The notes under the pieces: model-generated
What the model was told of the DNA's origin: nothing
Databases searched by the model: none
The model's input: only the letters and a program-made list of their open reading frames with translations
In this document: in pieces, positions 10,529 through 17,787 of the stretch
Layout: every line of letters begins with the position of its first letter
Numbering within the stretch: the stretch's first letter is position 1
Assembly (NCBI GenBank): GCA_031370645.1
Contig: JANMQV010000050.1
Span: 1 to 18,776, forward strand
Source: Candidatus Eiseniibacteriota bacterium
Lineage (GTDB): Bacteria > Eisenbacteria > RBG-16-71-46 > SZUA-252
DNA length: 18,776 bases
Direction of reading: 5' to 3'
Position numbers and translations under genes: made by a program

Positions 10529-10559
10529 TGAGGGGCGCCCTCGTGGCGGGCGCCCCTCA
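10529..10559. terminator. GC-rich hairpin between the convergent czcA and cph operons (possible bidirectional terminator)
   Basis: Perfect 12-bp stem TGAGGGGCGCCC / GGGCGCCCCTCA with a 7-nt loop. No U-tract on either side. Confidence 0.55.
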
Positions 10560-12263
10560 TCGCTTCGCCTGCCCCGCGGCCCCGAGCCCATCGAGTAGTT
10601 CACCTACTCCCTCCCGGTCCTCGTGCACCGTGAGGAGAAGCAGGTCTGCGGGCTTGAGCCACGCGTGCGCGGCGCGCACGGCGTCGAGCTCGCTCTCGTG
10701 CCGCGAGAGCGCTCCATCGCCTGCCCCGAGGGCACGGAATTCCTGCTGAAGCATTCCCGGCACCACACCCCGCTCGCGCCCGCGCAAATAGGTCTCGAGT
10801 TCCTTCACGAAGATCCGATCAGGGTGCATCGCCCAACCGCTTCGCGCCAATTCGCGGATCGATTCGTCGTCGCGGTCCCCCGCCTGGCCGATCACGAGGC
10901 CGCGGCGTGCGGCCGGCATCGCGGCCATCATGCGGGCGAGCGCTTCCATGCCGTGCGGATTGTGGGCGAAATCGACGATCACTTTCGCGCCGCAAACGTT
11001 CCAGACGTTCGCGCGTCCTGGATTGTGCGCGGGATCGCTAACGAACGACGCGAGGGCGCGTGCGATGGCGTCGAACGGGAGGTCCGCGGCAGAGGCGCCC
11101 GCGATCGCCGCCAGCGCGTTCGCGATATTGTGGCGCGCCGCGCCGCCGAACGTGAGCGGCACTTCGGCAAGGCGCGCGACGACGCGGCGTTCGGCGCCCC
11201 GCGCGAAGACGAGGGCGTCCCCCTCTAGCAGGCAGGCGTCCCCCCCGGTCGCGAGATGCGCCGCCACCTCCCGATGCGCCGCGTCGAGCGTGAACCAGGT
11301 CACCGGCTTCCTCAGCCGCATCCCACGCTCCAGGAGAAGTGGGTCATCGGCGTTCAGGATCACGCGGCCCTCGGGTTCGACGGCTTTCGCCACGACCATC
11401 TTCGCGTCGGCCAACCCGGCAAGATCGTCGATGCCGAACTCGCCAAGGTGGTCGTTCGCGACATTCGTGACGATGGCGGCCGTGACGCGAGGAAGCGGAA
11501 GTCCCCGTCGGAGGATGCCTCCCCGGGCGACTTCCAAGATTCCAATCTCGACGCGGCGGTCGCGTAGGACGGTGCGCGCTCCGTTCGGGCCGGAGAAATC
11601 TCCCTCGGCCACGACGTCAGCTCCGACCGTCACGGTGTCGGTCGAGGTGGTTCCACCCGTCAGACCCGCCGCCGCCGCCATCGCGCCGAGAAGCCGCACG
11701 GTGGTCGTCTTCCCGTTCGTTCCGGTGACGAGAAGCGTGGGAACGTCGTGCACCCACTTCCAGGCCAGTTTCGGAATCACCCGCTCGGACTCCTCGATGG
11801 GCCACGCGACGGAGCCCGTTCCAAGTCCGACCGAGAGGCGGCGATCATCCGCGAGAAGCGTCGCACCCTGGGCGTCTGCCGCCGCGGCGAGCGCGAGAAA
11901 CCACGGCTTTCGTTCTTCGTTGATCGCCGCGCGAAGGAGCGTGAGCGTGCTCTCCCGGTCGGGCGCCGGCGTTCCTTCGAACGCGGCCACCACGCACGAC
12001 CAGGCCGCCTCGTTCACTTCGGTGGAGGCATAGAGCGCATCCGCCGGCGCTCCGAAGGCGAGCATGATGCCGCGGGCGTAGGGTCGTGTGGCGATGGGAG
12101 CGCCGGTCCAGCCGAGCGCGCCGAGGTAATCGGTGAGCGCGCGTCTCCAGAGGCTCTCGGCGCGGCGCGCCTCGCCCCGGTCTACTTCAACGTCCAGAAT
12201 CGCCCCGGGGACGTCGAGCAGGAGACTCGGGCCGGTGAGCCGGCGCGAATCGAGGAGTTGCAT
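10557..12263 (-). CDS. Cyanophycin-synthetase-like Mur ligase protein (CphA N-domain-like + Mur ligase domain, no ATP-grasp domain)
   Basis: The N-terminus MQLLDSRRLTGPSL parallels CphA MKLTDSSVYLGPSI. Mur motifs VTGTNGKTTT, GDFSGP, LEVARGGILRRGL, TNVANDHLG, LNADD, NPGR, VDFAHNP and AGDRDD are present. Coupled to cphA by a TGATG overlap. Confidence 0.85.
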   Translation of the reverse strand: MQLLDSRRLTGPSLLLDVPGAILDVEVDRGEARRAESLWRRALTDYLGALGWTGAPIATRPYARGIMLAFGAPADALYASTEVNEAAWSCVVAAFEGTPAPDRESTLTLLRAAINEERKPWFLALAAAADAQGATLLADDRRLSVGLGTGSVAWPIEESERVIPKLAWKWVHDVPTLLVTGTNGKTTTVRLLGAMAAAAGLTGGTTSTDTVTVGADVVAEGDFSGPNGARTVLRDRRVEIGILEVARGGILRRGLPLPRVTAAIVTNVANDHLGEFGIDDLAGLADAKMVVAKAVEPEGRVILNADDPLLLERGMRLRKPVTWFTLDAAHREVAAHLATGGDACLLEGDALVFARGAERRVVARLAEVPLTFGGAARHNIANALAAIAGASAADLPFDAIARALASFVSDPAHNPGRANVWNVCGAKVIVDFAHNPHGMEALARMMAAMPAARRGLVIGQAGDRDDESIRELARSGWAMHPDRIFVKELETYLRGRERGVVPGMLQQEFRALGAGDGALSRHESELDAVRAAHAWLKPADLLLLTVHEDREGVGELLDGLGAAGQAKR

Positions 12264-15055
12264 CAGTCGGTGACTTCCGTCTCCCGGGCGAGGCGGACGC
12301 CACGCTCGTCGCGGATCAGGAGCTGTCCCTCGTCGAGCGGAATGTCCCCCGCGGCGGAATCGACGAACGCGGGAGTCCCCGCGGGCTCGCCGGTCGTGGA
12401 CGGGGCGTCGGCGGCGCGGAATCGAGTAATCTGGTTCCAGGAGCGGACGAGCGCGTCGGCGAAGATCAGCATGAGATCGCCCGAGCGCCCGCGGCGGAGT
12501 GCCGCCTCGATCGCTTCCTGCTCATCGGGAATCACGTCGATCGCCTGGGGCGAAACACCGGCCTCGAGAAGCGCCTCCCGGAGCATCTTCGGGACTTCGT
12601 CCCCCTTCCGGCCACGAAGGCCGTCGTCGCGCCGGCAGATGTACGTGTCGAAATGCCCCGCCGCGGCGCGGCCGATTTCCACGATGTCCTCGTCGCGCCG
12701 ATCCCCGGGCGCCGAGAGGACGCAGATCCGCTTCCCGCGCACGTCCATCCGATCGACGAGATCGCACATGGAGCGGACCGCGGCCGGATTGTGCCCGTAG
12801 TCCATGATCACCTTGAACGGATGGCGGTCGTGGACATTCATGCGCCCGGGCACCTGCTCGAACGTCGTGTCGAAGGTGCGAAGTCCCTGACGGATGTCCT
12901 CCATCTTCACCCCCATCGCGAAGGCGATCGCGGCGGCGAACATGGAGTTCTGGACGTTGTGGATGGCCCGTCCATCGAGTGTGCAGGGAATTCCGTGCGT
13001 CCAGAGAACCGGCAAGTGAAGTCCGCGGTCAAAGAGCGTGATCATGTTTCCGTTCACGCCTTCTTCCAAGATCACGGCGCGGCCGCCGGCGCGGATGTGC
13101 TCCTTCACAAGCGGGTAGTGCGACTGCGTGGTGACGTAGCAGAGGTTCTTCGCCTTCGTGTGGTCGGCCATGCGAAGGCAGTAGTCGTCGTCGGCGTTCA
13201 ACACCGCGGTGTCCTGCGCTACCTCCACGACGACGCGCTTCACCTCGGCCATCTGCTCCAACGTATCGACACCCCGGAGTCCGAGGTGATCGGCGCTGAT
13301 GTTGAGCACCGCCCCGACCGTGCACTTCCGATACCCAAGACCGCGGCGCAAGATTCCGCCGCGAGCCGTCTCCAATACCGCCACGTCGACACTCGGATCG
13401 CGGAGGACCATTCGGGCGGCCACCGGCCCCGTCATGTCCCCCTTCACGGTCAGTTGCCCGTCGATATAAACGCCGTCGGTCGTCGTGAGTCCCACGTGCC
13501 GGCCGCAAAGTTTCAGAATGTGCGCCACCATGCGCGCCGTCGTGGTCTTGCCGTTCGTCCCGGTGATGGTGGCGATCGGAATTCGGTAGGGCGTCCCAGG
13601 CGGGAAGAGCATCTCCATGACCGGCCCCGCCACGTCGCGCGGCGTCCCTTCGCTCGGGGCGACGTGCATGCGGAAGCCGGGCGCGGCGTTGCATTCGCAG
13701 ATGGCGCCGCCGGAGTCCTTATAAGAGCGCGCGATGTCGGGAGAGATGAAATCCACACCGCCAACGTCGAGCCCGATCGCCTTGATGGCGCGCACGGCCA
13801 TCTCCACGTTGTCGGGGTGGACGATGCCGGTCACGTCGATGGCCGTGCCGCCCGTTGAGAGATTCCCGGTCAAGCGAAGGAGCACTTGCTCCCCCTTCGG
13901 CAGCACCGTGTCGCGCGTGTAGCCCTTGTCGTTCATACAGCGCTGGGCCTGGTCGTCGAGTTCGAGGCGCGTCAGCACCTTCTCGTGGCCGATGCCACGC
14001 CGGGGATCGCGGTTCGTGATCTCCACCAACTGGGCGATCGTGTGCTCGCCATCCCCGACGACATGCCCCGGCACGCGCTCCGCCGCGGCGATCAACTGCC
14101 CGTTCACCACCAGCATCCGGTAGTCGCGGCCGCTCACGAAGTTTTCCACGATGACGGCGCGGCTATGCTCGCGCGCCTTGTGGAACGCCTCGCGCACGTG
14201 CTGCCCGTCCCGGAGATCGAGCGCGACGCCCCGGCCGTGATTTCCGTTGTACGGCTTCACTACGACCGGAAAGCGCAGCCGCTCCGCAGCAACGGCCGCT
14301 TCCTCCTCGGAGTAGACGAGTTTCTGCTGCGGCACCGGAAGTCCGAGGTCGCCGAGAATCCGGTTCGTCTCTTCCTTATCCGAGGCGATCTCGACGGCGA
14401 TGTGTCGCGTCTCGCTCGTGACGGTCGCCTGGATCCGCTTCTGGAAGCGCCCATGGCCGAATTGGACGAGGCTCTGGTTGTTGAGCCGAAGCCACGGGAT
14501 GTCCCGCTCCTCCGCCGCGCGGACGAGCGACGCCGTGCTAGGGCCGAACGCCCGACGCTGGGTGAAGCGGATGAACTCGTCGCGGGCCGATTCGAACGAC
14601 CAGCCGGGCGGAAGCGATCCCGCGGGACGGAGCGCTTCCGGCACGAGCGAGAGGAGGAGAAGAAGGCCGAGTTTTCCCGCCTCCACGCCAACCTCCGCTT
14701 GCTCGTATTGATAGACGATGTCGTAGACGCCCTTCGTCCCGGCGTCGCGCGTCTTCCCAAACGTGACCTTCGCGCCCGCCGCGTTCTGGAGTTCGATCGC
14801 CGTGTGCTCGAGCACATGTCCGAGCCACGTCCCCTCTTCCTCCGTCATGCGGCGGACGAATCCGCCCGGCTCGCCGTACGAGCAGCCGTGCTCGCGGAGT
14901 CCGGGGAGCGCTTCGAGGAGGGCGTTCACGAAGGTGGGGCCAAGGCGTACGGTCGGCCACTGCTCCAACTCGCCCAGGTTGACCGTGAAGCGGATGACGG
15001 GAAAGAGCGCGTAAATGCTGGGGCCAAGGTAAACGGAGGAATCGGTGAGTTTCAT
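12263..15055 (-). CDS. cphA: Cyanophycin synthetase (CphA1-type)
   Basis: 930 aa. N domain HGCSYGEPGGF...GTWLGHVLEH. ATP-grasp GPSTASLV, VVVKPYNGNHGRGV, GNLSTGGTA, ECNAAPGFRMH. Mur domain ITGTNGKTTT, LETARGG, DYGHNP, APGDRRD. Directly downstream of cyanophycinase. Confidence 0.96.
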   Translation of the reverse strand: MKLTDSSVYLGPSIYALFPVIRFTVNLGELEQWPTVRLGPTFVNALLEALPGLREHGCSYGEPGGFVRRMTEEEGTWLGHVLEHTAIELQNAAGAKVTFGKTRDAGTKGVYDIVYQYEQAEVGVEAGKLGLLLLLSLVPEALRPAGSLPPGWSFESARDEFIRFTQRRAFGPSTASLVRAAEERDIPWLRLNNQSLVQFGHGRFQKRIQATVTSETRHIAVEIASDKEETNRILGDLGLPVPQQKLVYSEEEAAVAAERLRFPVVVKPYNGNHGRGVALDLRDGQHVREAFHKAREHSRAVIVENFVSGRDYRMLVVNGQLIAAAERVPGHVVGDGEHTIAQLVEITNRDPRRGIGHEKVLTRLELDDQAQRCMNDKGYTRDTVLPKGEQVLLRLTGNLSTGGTAIDVTGIVHPDNVEMAVRAIKAIGLDVGGVDFISPDIARSYKDSGGAICECNAAPGFRMHVAPSEGTPRDVAGPVMEMLFPPGTPYRIPIATITGTNGKTTTARMVAHILKLCGRHVGLTTTDGVYIDGQLTVKGDMTGPVAARMVLRDPSVDVAVLETARGGILRRGLGYRKCTVGAVLNISADHLGLRGVDTLEQMAEVKRVVVEVAQDTAVLNADDDYCLRMADHTKAKNLCYVTTQSHYPLVKEHIRAGGRAVILEEGVNGNMITLFDRGLHLPVLWTHGIPCTLDGRAIHNVQNSMFAAAIAFAMGVKMEDIRQGLRTFDTTFEQVPGRMNVHDRHPFKVIMDYGHNPAAVRSMCDLVDRMDVRGKRICVLSAPGDRRDEDIVEIGRAAAGHFDTYICRRDDGLRGRKGDEVPKMLREALLEAGVSPQAIDVIPDEQEAIEAALRRGRSGDLMLIFADALVRSWNQITRFRAADAPSTTGEPAGTPAFVDSAAGDIPLDEGQLLIRDERGVRLARETEVTD

Positions 15056-15084
15056 GGTGCCCCCGGCGCGGACGCGAAGTGGCG

Positions 15085-15927
15085 TCAGTCGCCTTCTGTC
15101 GGCGCTCCGGTAGCGCTGGCGATCCGGGTATGGAGATTGAACGCGCCGCCCCGCACGATGACGTGAAGCTTCACGCCGATCAGGCTCACCGGCTCTCCGA
15201 GTTTCGCGGCGTCCATCGAGGAGTATTCGATACCCGACGGATCGACGATCGTGACCGCCCCGCTTCCCACGACTTCCAGTGTTTCATCCGGCGCGATGAA
15301 CGCGGCCGTGTCTTCATCGAGGCCGACACCGACGGCGAACGGATTGAAGGCCAGCGCTGTCAAGAGTCGCCCCAGCCGGTCGCGCTGGCGAAAATGCTGA
15401 TCGACCACGATGCGATTCGTGAGCCCGAGCCCCGGCGCCATCGTCACCATCCCCGCATGCGGGGTCGAACCCTCGTCTCCGTACGCGATCATGTGCTCCG
15501 AAAGAAAGGCCGCGCCGGCGGATGTTCCCGCCACGTGGACGCCGCGCCCGTTCATCACGCGGATCGCGCGAGCCGCGGTCGTGCCTCCGAGCATCGTGCC
15601 GAGACGAAGTTGGCTGCCTCCCGTGAGGAAAACACCGGTCGCCTTCTCGAGGATGGAGAGTTCCTCGGGATCCTCGCACTGCTTGCGACTCTCGAAGTGG
15701 AGCACCGAGACCTTGGGCGCGCGGAGCGACTTGAACACTTCCTCGTAGCGACGGCCGGTCGAGCGGAGTTCGGAGGCGGTCGGAATGACCGCGATGTGCG
15801 CCTCCCGCCCACCGCAAATCTGCACGAATCGCTTGAGGATGACTTCGGGGCCGACCTTGTCTTCGGCGCCCCCGATCGGAACGATGTAGCCGCGGGAGAG
15901 GTTGTCGGGTCCGGTGATCGGGGTCAC
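15085..15927 (-). CDS. cphB: Cyanophycinase (peptidase S51)
   Basis: IGGAEDK, IPTAS, FLTGGSQLRL, nucleophile motif GTSAGA, VDQHFRQRDRLGRL and GLDEDT. GTG start. Adjacent to cphA. Confidence 0.95.
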   Translation of the reverse strand: MTPITGPDNLSRGYIVPIGGAEDKVGPEVILKRFVQICGGREAHIAVIPTASELRSTGRRYEEVFKSLRAPKVSVLHFESRKQCEDPEELSILEKATGVFLTGGSQLRLGTMLGGTTAARAIRVMNGRGVHVAGTSAGAAFLSEHMIAYGDEGSTPHAGMVTMAPGLGLTNRIVVDQHFRQRDRLGRLLTALAFNPFAVGVGLDEDTAAFIAPDETLEVVGSGAVTIVDPSGIEYSSMDAAKLGEPVSLIGVKLHVIVRGGAFNLHTRIASATGAPTEGD

Positions 15928-15977: not shown

Positions 15978-16006
15978 AGAATAGCATGGCGGGCGCGGGG
16001 TCTCAA
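15978..16006 (-). promoter_or_regulatory. Putative sigma70 promoter of the cphB-cphA-Mur ligase operon
   Basis: Minus strand reads TTGAGA (16006-16001), 17 nt, then TATTCT (15983-15978) preceded by TGC (extended -10). About 50 nt upstream of the cphB GTG. The -35 overlaps the carbonic anhydrase stop codon. Confidence 0.6.
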
Positions 16007-16650
16007 GAGCCGGACGAGGTAACGGCCTCCCGGTAGCGGGCGGTGATCTGCGACTCCCCCTCGATGTCGACGCCGAGATCGCGCACGATGCCGTCCCGGA
16101 CTCCGTACACCCAACCGTGCACCGAAATTTCCTGCCCTCGCGCCCAGGCTTCGCGGAGAACGGTCGTCTGGCAGACGTTCACCGCCTGTTCGATGACATT
16201 CAGTTCGCAGAGCCGCGCGTGGCGGGCTTCCTCGTCGGGAATGGCGCGAAGGAGCACCTGGTGCTTGTCGTGAACGTCCTCGACGTGGCGAAGCCAATTG
16301 TCGCTGAGCCCCATCGTCTTCCGCCGAAGCGCGGCGAGCACACCGGTGCATCCGTAGTGGCCGCAGACGATGATCCGTCGCACGCGGAGAAGATCGACCG
16401 CGAACTGGATCACCGAGAGGCAATTGAGGTCGGTGTGGACGACGACGTTCGCGATGTTGCGATGCACGAACATCTCGCCCGGGAGGAGTCCGACGATTTG
16501 GTTCGCCGGAACGCGGCTATCGGAGCAGCCGATCCAGAGGTACTCGGGCGCCTGCTGTTTCGAAAGGCGCTCGAAGAAGGATGGGTCGTCGCGGAGGACT
16601 CCTTCGGCCCAGGACTTGTTCTTGGCCAATAGTTCATCAAGAGGCTTCAT
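16003..16650 (-). CDS. can: Beta-class carbonic anhydrase
   Basis: YLWIGCSDSRVPAN, GEMFVHRNIAN, VCGHYGCTGV (Zn ligands Cys, His, Cys), LCELNVIEQ and VHGWVY. GGGAG RBS. Confidence 0.95.
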   Translation of the reverse strand: MKPLDELLAKNKSWAEGVLRDDPSFFERLSKQQAPEYLWIGCSDSRVPANQIVGLLPGEMFVHRNIANVVVHTDLNCLSVIQFAVDLLRVRRIIVCGHYGCTGVLAALRRKTMGLSDNWLRHVEDVHDKHQVLLRAIPDEEARHARLCELNVIEQAVNVCQTTVLREAWARGQEISVHGWVYGVRDGIVRDLGVDIEGESQITARYREAVTSSGS

Positions 16651-16678
16651 GCGATCTCCCTATCGGAGGCAGGCGAGT

Positions 16679-16779
16679 TGGTGGAGACTGGTTTCGGAAT
16701 CGAACCGAACGACAACCCTTGCGGGGGTTGCCCAACGGGTTTGAAGCCCGCGGCCGGCGCCAGCCAGCGTGACCAGTCT
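16679..16779 (-). tRNA. selC: tRNA-Sec-like gene, anticodon UCA, with atypical acceptor arm
   Basis: Folded by hand on the minus strand. Acceptor (A)GACTGGT / ACCAGTC(T); 6-bp D-stem GCTGGC / GCCGGC with 4-nt loop TGGC; anticodon stem GCGGG / CCCGT with loop CTTCAAA (TCA at 16744-16742); long variable arm GGCAACCC / GGGTTGTC; T-arm TTCGG-TTCGATT-CCGAA; 3' end TCCACCA. The D-arm geometry, long V-arm and UCA are tRNA-Sec hallmarks. The selC symbol is provisional. Confidence 0.82.
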
Positions 16780-16792
16780 TGCGCTCGCGGCA

Positions 16793-17143
16793 CTATGGCT
16801 CGAAGTGCCGGTCGAAGTAGATCCATAAGATTCTCGAATATCGAAACACGGCCGGGACCATCGGCACGAACAAGATGCCCGCCGCGATGAGGAGCCGCCC
16901 GAGCGGCCAGCCGGGTAGCACGAGGGCGAGAGCCGCCAAGAGCACGAGTATCACGCCGACCGCGAGCGCGTAACTGAAGTACATGGCGCCCGAGAAGTAG
17001 CCGGGCTCGCGGCTGAACGCGATACCGCACGAGGGGCAGTTTTCGTTCATCCGAACCGCCCCCGAGAAGATGCGCCCGGTCCGGCACTGAGGGCAATGTC
17101 CCTTCCAGATCGCGAGCCATCGGCGCGGCTCCCCCGCGGTCAC
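16793..17143 (-). CDS. DUF983-like membrane protein with two CxxC motifs
   Basis: The GTG at 17143 overlaps the upstream stop (GTGA). CPQCRTGRIF...CPSCG...EPGYFSGAMYFSY is followed by two hydrophobic helices and RYSRILW. About 116 aa. Confidence 0.75.
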   Translation of the reverse strand: MTAGEPRRWLAIWKGHCPQCRTGRIFSGAVRMNENCPSCGIAFSREPGYFSGAMYFSYALAVGVILVLLAALALVLPGWPLGRLLIAAGILFVPMVPAVFRYSRILWIYFDRHFEP

Positions 17144-17787
17144 GGCTGCGGCAGGACGGGGCGCGGCAATCCGAAGATCGACTCCGCCGTGACGCGCGTG
17201 TAATTCGGTCCGCCGAGCCGCGCGATCACGTCGAGCTTCGCGGCATCGACGCGTCCGTTCGTGAGGACGGCCTCCGCGAGGTGAAAGTAGACGACTTCCC
17301 CGATCACGTAGTTCGCGTGGTACGGCCCCTCGCCATGCTCCACGATCTTGTACAACTTGCACTCCAACGCCACGGGGCATTCCGCCGCGCGAAACGGCTT
17401 CACCTTCACGCTCGGCGCCTTGGTGAACCCCGCTTCGACGAATTCGTCCACCTCCGGCGGGTAATCGGCCGAGGCCTGGTTCATTCTTTCGCGCAACGCC
17501 CAGGGAACGAGGTGGATGACGAACTCCCCGGTATCGCGGACGTTGTGGAGCGTGTCCTTGTCGCGGCCGGTCCCGGTCGTCACGGGCATGAAGACGACCG
17601 AAGGCGGGTGCGCCCCGCCCGCGTTGAAAAAGGAGAAGGGCGCAAGGTTCGAAACGCCTGTCTTCGAAAGCGAAGAGACGAACGCGATCGGCCGCGGGAC
17701 GACGCAGCCGGTCAGGAGCGCATAGGCATCGGCCGGCGCAATGCTGGCCGGGTCGATGTGGCGAAATGCAGCAGCGTCGGCGCTCAC
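17140..17787 (-). CDS. Flavin reductase family protein (FMN-binding split barrel, DIM6/NTAB-like)
   Basis: VVPRPIAFVSS, NLAPFSFFN, KDTLHNVRDTGEFV, VDEF, PVALECKL and IARLGG. This family is often found next to homogentisate pathway genes. Confidence 0.88.
   Translation of the reverse strand: MSADAAAFRHIDPASIAPADAYALLTGCVVPRPIAFVSSLSKTGVSNLAPFSFFNAGGAHPPSVVFMPVTTGTGRDKDTLHNVRDTGEFVIHLVPWALRERMNQASADYPPEVDEFVEAGFTKAPSVKVKPFRAAECPVALECKLYKIVEHGEGPYHANYVIGEVVYFHLAEAVLTNGRVDAAKLDVIARLGGPNYTRVTAESIFGLPRPVLPQP

Follow-up and report, generated by a model that had tools for sequence, protein, structure and literature searches.

What use might a bacterium that already encodes a canonical selenocysteine (Sec) tRNA have for a second, tRNASec-like gene, whose anticodon would read UGA and whose discriminator base is that of a cysteine tRNA? 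The question is posed by an 18,776-nt stretch of DNA (the window), contig C167 of a 3.0-Mb, 247-contig assembly (G000) from Candidatus Eisenbacteria, in which ARAGORN predicts one tRNA, tRNA-SeC (tca), at 16683–16779 on the minus strand. An initial annotation, made from the letters alone, had described here a tRNA-Sec body with an aberrant acceptor arm and had offered three readings: a variant tRNA-Sec, a UGA-decoding tRNA charged with something else, such as Cys, or a selC gene in decay. Our analyses favor the second of these. We think it probable that this is a functional second tRNASec-like gene encoding a tRNA-Cys(UCA) of the selC*/tRNAReC type, which would insert Cys at UGA codons.

Architecture of the tRNA and choice of register

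First, the body of the molecule is tRNA-Sec-like, and the elements initially described (the UCA anticodon, the D arm, a variable arm of about 8 bp, the T-loop and the 3′ end) are all present, on the minus strand. The Rfam tRNA-Sec model RF01852 matches at 16685–16779 (minus strand; 64.5 bits against a gathering score of 47, E 2.2e-11), in line with the ARAGORN call, and our own covariance model R1, built from the nine sequences of alignment A1 (below), gives 114.5 bits. The gene runs for 97 nt from G1 (16778) to A76 (16682). Its acceptor 5′ strand, GACUGGU (16772–16778), pairs with ACCAGUC (16686–16692) in seven perfect base pairs (G1–U7 with A66–C72) and leads through a 3-nt connector, CAC (16769–16771), into a tRNA-Sec-like D arm (16753–16768) with a 6-bp stem, GCUGGC/GCCGGC, and a 4-nt loop, UGGC. 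The anticodon arm (16735–16751) has a 5-bp stem and the loop CUUCAAA, with the anticodon UCA at 16744–16742; it is followed by a variable arm (16711–16732) with an 8-bp stem and a 6-nt loop, by a T arm (16693–16709) with a 5-bp stem, UUCGG/CCGAA, and the loop UUCGAUU, and by the discriminator U73 (16685) with an encoded CCA (16684–16682). In canonical tRNAs and in tRNA-Sec, the connector between acceptor and D stem is 2 nt long. With bacterial tRNA-Sec (RF01852), the gene shares UCA within a CUUCAAA loop, the 6-bp/4-nt D arm, the long variable arm and the above-threshold score; it differs from it in having U73 rather than G73, in a distance of 12 rather than 13 nt from T loop to discriminator (7/5, not 8/5), in a 13-bp branch that is available only if the base at −1 is retained, and in not lying next to sel genes. 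What emerges is an ordinary 12-bp elongator branch combined with a Sec-type D arm and a long variable arm.

Second, the 3′ end has to be placed, as the CCA that closes the tRNA is followed directly by another, at 16679–16681, outside the tRNA. Orthologues were sought with the Rfam tRNA-Sec model (E ≤ 1e-9) in eight genomes of the genus and 33 other relatives. A second tRNA-Sec match, of 55–64.5 bits, was found in six of the eight genomes; the remaining two, G001 (94% complete) and G006 (92%), gave the canonical match only, and none of the 33 relatives outside the genus had a second match at this threshold. All six orthologues keep GUC-U-CCA, divergence begins right past this CCA, and at the site of the following triplet five orthologues read GAC, GAC, TCC, ATC and ACT. 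The alternative register that had been considered for the second CCA thus depends on a triplet found in this genome alone, and was rejected, whereas the conserved U-CCA identifies U73 as the discriminator and vindicates the register drawn from the first CCA, with its 7-bp acceptor and 3-nt connector. An encoded CCA likewise ends 37 of the 48 other ARAGORN predictions in this genome.

Third, the stems covary in this register. Alignment A1 joins the six orthologues to three tRNAs of other phyla that share their layout (L136, L137 and L169; n = 9). Under the 7/5 fold plus the −1:73 pair, 97.6% of its cells are paired and 13 pairs show changes on both sides; none of 500 shuffled controls reaches the observed pairing values, and slid controls are 25–51% paired. 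In the acceptor stem (A1 columns 2:94 to 8:88), six positions are paired in 9/9 members and U7:A/G66 in 8/9, with both-side changes at two positions. The D stem is 100% paired (both-side changes at three of six pairs), the variable stem has 93% of its cells paired (both-side changes at four pairs), and the T stem is 100% paired, its outer pair, 71:87, being U:A in eight members and C:G in one. A would-be sixth anticodon-stem pair (columns 28:46) sets C against U or C in all nine. Positions 1–2 of the connector vary across the orthologues, and connector base 1 is unable to pair with the A past the T stem in any of the six. The 7-bp, U73 register is therefore upheld by homologues, as the initial annotation had suggested it might be, and U73 itself is kept in all ten family members (the nine of A1 and G180). 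Its other proposal, an 8/4 fold, did not withstand the comparison: the eighth acceptor pair forms in three of the nine A1 members and in none of the six orthologues (C·A four times, A·A, G·A), the fifth T-stem pair is present in 9/9, and this fold was rejected. A 9/4 layout in the Rfam output is imposed by the model and holds a C·A mismatch.

A further drawing arises from base −1, an A at 16779 that could pair with U73. No register yields 8/5 with G73, as had been noted at the outset; an 8/5 drawing does exist via A-1:U73, without a free discriminator, and the minimum free energy fold includes it (−46.5 kcal/mol, z −3.05). Might the gene then encode a genuine tRNA-Sec, the second in this genome, that is charged with Ser, converted by SelA and delivered by SelB, and in which A-1 is kept after RNase P cleavage to give an 8/5, 13-bp branch with U73 paired? 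In favor of this idea are the D arm, whose 6-bp stem and 4-nt loop are of the tRNA-Sec type, the predicted fold just described, and the ability of an A or G at −1 to pair with U73 in eight of ten members (within A1, A:U in six, G:U in two and another combination in one). Against it, L169 and G180 have C at −1, and an A at −1 also stands ahead of four of the seven ordinary U73 tRNAs in this genome; A-1 is therefore not distinctive and carries little weight, and its case as a meaningful eighth pair is weakened. On comparative grounds, the best-supported mature form of the tRNA would be 7/5 with a free U73.

Is the gene real and maintained? Contigs from two public runs (two studies, sediment metagenomes by record) span 16600–16860 with zero differences listed within the tRNA. 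The single listed difference among those two runs lies at 16664, and one run may be the source of this DNA. With five orthologues agreeing on the layout as well, there is no slip of assembly here, and the gene is not an assembly artefact. The stretch was unmatched in one metatranscriptome (X17) and in the DNA run X5. Across the six orthologues, the CUUCAAA loop, the T loop, U73 and CCA show no variation, and the stems vary by compensation. Given its presence in six of eight genomes of the genus, its relatives in other phyla and its compensatory stem changes, the gene is conserved and evidently under selection rather than decaying; the suggestion of a decaying selC was rejected.

Selenocysteine machinery of the host and identity of the tRNA

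Does the host depend on this gene for selenocysteine? A better Rfam tRNA-Sec match (67.5 bits) sits on contig C103 and is a canonical selC, GGGGACGG...ACGUUCCC-G-CCA, with an 8-position acceptor containing one G·A mismatch, a 5-bp T stem and G73-CCA. Some 120 nt ahead of it lies selD (353.7 bits), whose frame has one in-frame TGA (product SCAGU-AAK), and a profile search of the genome yields selA (532.5 bits) and a single selB (345.5 bits). The search for selA, selB, selD and a second, canonical selC that the initial annotation had recommended has therefore found all four in the genome. Since a canonical G73 selC exists elsewhere, the UCA/U73 gene is not the cell's tRNA-Sec, and, with U73 kept throughout the family, a variant tRNA-Sec is unlikely. 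A dedicated second tRNA-Sec that keeps its A-1 sits equally ill with the GCA anticodons among the relatives and with a genome from another phylum, G042, which has such a tRNA and in which selA and selD were not found (the assembly may be incomplete); we regard that scenario as very improbable.

To which class, then, does the gene belong? The name tRNAReC was reportedly given by Vargas-Rodriguez et al. in 2018. According to its main text, an earlier survey described selC* tRNA-Cys species that are tRNASec-like, carry U73 and either GCA or UCA, and belong to genomes with complete selABCD; one UCA member reads the selD opal codon as Cys in E. coli (Mukai, 2017; PMC5389517). A more recent paper gives in its main text an operational rule for tRNAReC (a length of at least 80 nt, UCA or GCA, discriminator U), under which the present gene falls with its UCA, 97 nt, 8-bp variable stem and U73, and describes the physiological role of such tRNAs as still unclear (2026 paper, PMC13582414). 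Our gene shares with this class the tRNASec-like body, the long variable arm, the 6-bp D stem with its tetraloop, U73, the opal anticodon UCA (with GCA in sister sequences), recognition by the tRNA-Sec covariance model, and coexistence with canonical selC, selA, selB and selD. It differs in several respects. In the selC* forms, as characterized in the main text of PMC5389517, both the acceptor and the anticodon stem are lengthened, the deltaproteobacterial ones being 8/4 with an A51a bulge, whereas ours has a 7-bp rather than an 8-bp acceptor, a 5-bp T stem without the A51a bulge, a connector of 3 nt and an anticodon stem of 5 bp. Firmicutes selC* forms are 8/5 by our reading of the matches listed in a pattern scan (below). 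The first pair is G1:C72 in ours and A1:U72 in the cysS*-linked UCA forms (PMC5389517, main text), no selB* or cysS* is linked to our gene, and the host phylum, Candidatus Eisenbacteria, is not named for selC*/tRNAReC in the main texts of these papers.

The amino acid is suggested by identity rules and kinship. The tRNA-Cys of the genome has G1:C72 and U73, and shares G1:C72, C3:G70 and U73 with the UCA/U73 tRNA; all four tRNA-Ser and selC have G73. In published E. coli tests, Ser was inserted only by a G73 allo-tRNA variant, as far as the main text reports (PMC5389517). The uniform G73 of the serine tRNAs, this published result and the kinship together lead us to prefer Cys, and a UGA decoder charged with Cys, one of the options initially raised, is the reading that we favor and that matches the selC*/tRNAReC class as presented in the main text of PMC5389517. 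We hold the cysteine identity to be reasonably probable, with several points standing against it. A main determinant for the cysteinyl-tRNA synthetase (CysRS) is G34, which a UCA anticodon does not contain. The sole cysS of the genome (480 aa, matched by TIGR00435 over nearly its full length) keeps its anticodon-binding domain, and neither a cysS* nor a selB* paralogue was found in the genome, the weak CysRS-like match being MetRS and the weaker SelB-like matches LepA and IF2. The 7-bp acceptor contrasts with the 8-bp stem of the D. biacutus selC* tRNA, in which, per the main text, it mattered for opal suppression (PMC5389517). A U73 with a long variable arm is, moreover, counted as SerRS-compatible in the main text of the same paper (PMC5389517), and the tRNA is missing in G001 and was not found in G006.

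That last compatibility invites a different possibility, namely, a general opal suppressor of Ser or mixed identity resembling the allo-tRNAs, charged by SerRS through the long arm and delivered by EF-Tu, which would let a small share of normal UGA stop codons be read through or would act in a setting of stress or toxins. The 7/5 branch of the present tRNA, 12 bp long, resembles that of an elongator. By the main text of PMC5389517, EF-Tu uses allo-tRNAs with 12-bp branches in E. coli, and allo-tRNAs are reported near toxin–antitoxin genes; the copy in genome G004 lies beside a weak AbiEii-like match, which, however, is below the Pfam cut-off. The present tRNA shares with the allo-tRNAs (8/4, 9/3; Mukai et al., 2017, main text) the 12-bp acceptor/T branch, the long D stem with its tetraloop, the long variable arm and perhaps a role in suppression. 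In contrast to them, it is split 7/5 rather than 8/4 or 9/3, its UCA is fixed in the genus, and its kin bear the identity marks of Cys rather than those of Ser or Ala; GCA, the Cys anticodon, is even found in relatives that have this body. The G73 of all four tRNA-Ser and of selC, and the published finding that only the G73 variant inserts Ser, count against serine as well. Stop-codon usage argues in the same direction: TGA ends 541 of 1137 long ORFs here (48%), compared with 44/96 (46%) and 85/159 (53%) in two congeners without the tRNA, so that this genome gives no sign of TGA-stop avoidance relative to them. In other genera of the family, the proportions are 41%, 50% and 31% (10/32). We consider a general serine-type suppressor unlikely.

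Three observations on the genome stand apart from this argument. The TAG stop is unusually common for a G+C content of 66% (35% in G000 and 37–53% in relatives, with TGA at 31–53%). ARAGORN also calls three long "tRNAs" without CCA in G000 (C94:24349-24445, C189:3763-3852 and C204:29354-29444; 97, 90 and 91 nt); the anticodon of one is undetermined, and all three look like false calls or unusual elements. Finally, two contigs start with the same short EF-Tu-like N-terminal piece beside tRNA clusters (C111:12-98 and C177:12-98), as would be expected had duplicated tuf genes interrupted the assembly at these points.

Relatives, neighborhood and origin

Where else do such tRNAs occur? A pattern scan of species-representative genomes for long-arm tRNAs with U73-CCA and UCA or GCA returned at least 120 stretches, and among the matches listed ARAGORN predicts at least 47 long tRNAs, 34 with GCA and 13 with UCA. 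The matches listed include published selC* types, in deltaproteobacterial, Nitrospirota, Thermodesulfovibrionales and Firmicutes records, and three with the layout of our tRNA: L136 (UCA; a record titled Clostridia bacterium), L137 (GCA; a Thermoleophilia MAG) and L169 (GCA; an Acidobacteriota MAG). Among the matches listed, L137 is 79% and L136 77% identical to our tRNA, and a Sulfobacillus GCA form with an 8/5 fold is 74% identical; the selC of its own genome is 64% identical. Within the phylum, the picture is very different. When run on 151 sampled genomes, R1 scored 108–118 bits in five of seven sampled genomes of the genus and at most 58.8 bits elsewhere, and the lower R1 matches, as far as these were listed and compared, fall on the canonical selC sites of a class scan, from which overall tallies and the listed selC coordinates of other genomes were used and the matches of G074, a genome marked unpublished, were left out. 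The U73 tRNA gene is thus confined to one genus among these 151 genomes. This restriction to one genus, together with the likeness to genes from distant phyla, is a pattern that fits horizontal acquisition of the gene. As to the host itself, the named proteins nearest to one neighboring gene product mostly bear the label Candidatus Eisenbacteria, with identities of up to 88%, which makes this the likely phylum; LepA was uninformative, with 59–62% identity to four phyla. Carriage by phage was considered and rejected, 53 viral stretches having no close copy of the tRNA (best score 46.5 bits).

The hosts of L136, L137 and L169 differ in their Sec genes. G042, the host of L136 (2.2 Mb), encodes a full-length SelB of 685 aa with β-barrel and winged-helix domains on a 74-kb contig (L344, G042:C12:13000-29000), without an adjacent selA; a search of this assembly, which may be incomplete, revealed neither selA nor selD nor a canonical selC, and the U73/UCA 7/5 form (L136/L279, G042:C6:28673-28770) is the one tRNASec-like gene in it. 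G041 and G043, the hosts of L137 and L169, have the full Sec machinery, and the second model match of G180 is probably a canonical selC. Several details of these genomes may be recorded here. G041 holds, besides its selA–selB pair on C201, a second, shorter SelB-like frame of 442 aa (G041:C170:3107-4255; 190 bits, below the cut-off), which could be a selB*-like paralogue. G043 has further tRNA-Sec matches at C1151:2023-2117 (70.8 bits) and C1003:3348-3439 (66.5 bits), which brings its tRNASec-like genes to three. A divergent MsrB (SelR domain) gene without an in-frame stop (L136:4961-5383) is found some 190 nt from the L136 tRNA, and a RusA resolvase gene (L137:5192-5575), perhaps a prophage remnant, about 1.1 kb from the L137 tRNA.

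In the window itself, the tRNA lies among genes of the same strand. Upstream is a gene for a DUF983 zinc-ribbon membrane protein (16793–17380, minus strand; PF06170, 27.2 bits), whose stop precedes G1 by 14 nt, and downstream a β-carbonic anhydrase gene (16003–16650, minus strand; PF00484, 173 bits, Atlas search), whose ATG follows the CCA by 31 nt. A flavin reductase gene lies upstream of these three minus-strand genes and a cyanophycinase/cyanophycin synthetase cluster downstream (10557–15927, minus strand), which encodes a cyanophycin synthetase of 930 aa, followed directly by a Mur-ligase-only paralogue of 568 aa, and a cyanophycinase-like S51 peptidase. The order carbonic anhydrase–tRNA–DUF983–flavin reductase is common to G003, G005, G002 and G007. 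Neither a promoter-like or terminator-like site next to the tRNA nor a selenium-related gene linked to it was found. As the tRNA sits within the DUF983/carbonic anhydrase string without a promoter-like site of its own, it is probably cut from a longer transcript.

The placement also varies. In G001 (L199, G001:C140), cyanophycinase and DUF983 are about 230 bp apart, with neither carbonic anhydrase nor tRNA in the gap, and these two genes thus share their presence and absence (16003–16779 compared with G001). In G004, the copy has another context: it adjoins a 189-aa ORF with below-cut-off AbiEii/DUF6036 nucleotidyltransferase matches (L055:3125-3694) and overlaps the end of an acetyl-CoA-synthetase-like ORF. 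Its absence from the syntenic site of G001 and the failure to find it in G006 make the tRNA gene dispensable. Could it, then, have no translational use at all, and serve as a processing signal or integration target, or be a recently acquired, unexpressed passenger? Such a reading draws on the tight placement between two genes, with no promoter- or terminator-like site, on the variable presence within the genus with one copy in another context, and on the RusA gene near L137. It is countered by the invariance of loops, U73 and CCA in all six orthologues with compensating stems, which is the pattern expected of a decoding tRNA, and by the viral stretches free of close copies. To us, a purely non-translational role seems quite improbable, and a Cys-type decoder remains the preferred reading.

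Delivery, targets and significance

How would a Cys-type decoder work in this cell? The single CysRS of the genome would charge the tRNA with Cys by way of U73, G1:C72, C35 and A36, the tRNA probably having been processed from the longer DUF983/carbonic anhydrase transcript, and the charged tRNA would then read UGA as Cys. The likeliest targets would be the UGA codons of selenoprotein genes, for example that of selD (SCAGU-AAK), and with Cys placed at Sec sites, selenoproteins could be made without selenium. A TGA is present in selD of all eight genomes of the genus and of many relatives without the tRNA, so that no target accounts for the presence of the tRNA, and a specific link to the UGA-bearing selD was rejected. 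A hairpin past the selD UGA folds no better than shuffles (z 0.09), a Sec-type formate dehydrogenase was not found with PF00384, the examined match being NuoG-like by sequence reading, and a scan for genes with in-frame TGA (220 candidates) was dropped when nine that were checked proved to be adjacent genes or non-coding frames.

Either SelB or EF-Tu could carry the tRNA to the ribosome. According to the classical rule, the eighth acceptor pair steers tRNA-Sec to SelB and away from EF-Tu. The 7/5 (12-bp) elongator geometry favors EF-Tu, and, combined with this rule, predicts EF-Tu delivery and general read-through of UGA as Cys; that about half of the long ORFs end in TGA, as in the congeners without the tRNA, speaks against an efficient general suppressor. 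G042, with its SelB and no apparent Sec synthesis genes, hints instead at SelB. A bolder proposal, which we put forward tentatively and think rather doubtful, is that the 7/5 tRNAs make up a separate lineage of opal decoders of the Cys type, with the geometry of ordinary elongators, spread by horizontal transfer and delivered either by EF-Tu or by SelB. If by EF-Tu, such a tRNA would be a naturally occurring suppressor that turns UGA into Cys, in a genome that tolerates it with TGA closing about half of its genes. If by SelB, then SelB in these lineages would accept a 12-bp tRNA with a 7-bp acceptor, the eighth-pair rule for sorting between SelB and EF-Tu would be overturned, and G042 would be a cell that keeps SelB and SECIS-directed UGA decoding for Cys after the loss of Sec synthesis.

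Finally, what does the locus add? A second, Cys-marked, UGA-reading tRNASec-like copy is of a kind already described in other bacteria. New are the 7/5 architecture, the lineage, the absence of dedicated partner genes, and the presence or absence within one genus, with the proviso that the supplement of PMC5389517 may hold a similar form; among the papers of the library searched, none names both "Eisenbacteria" and "selenocysteine". For annotation, tRNA-Sec calls from ARAGORN or Rfam alone mislabel such genes, and the UGA of selenoprotein genes in such genomes may be read as Cys. A body plan without the eighth acceptor pair offers a natural test case for the rule that separates SelB from EF-Tu, and tRNAs that place Cys at Sec codons blur the line between stop codon, selenocysteine and cysteine.
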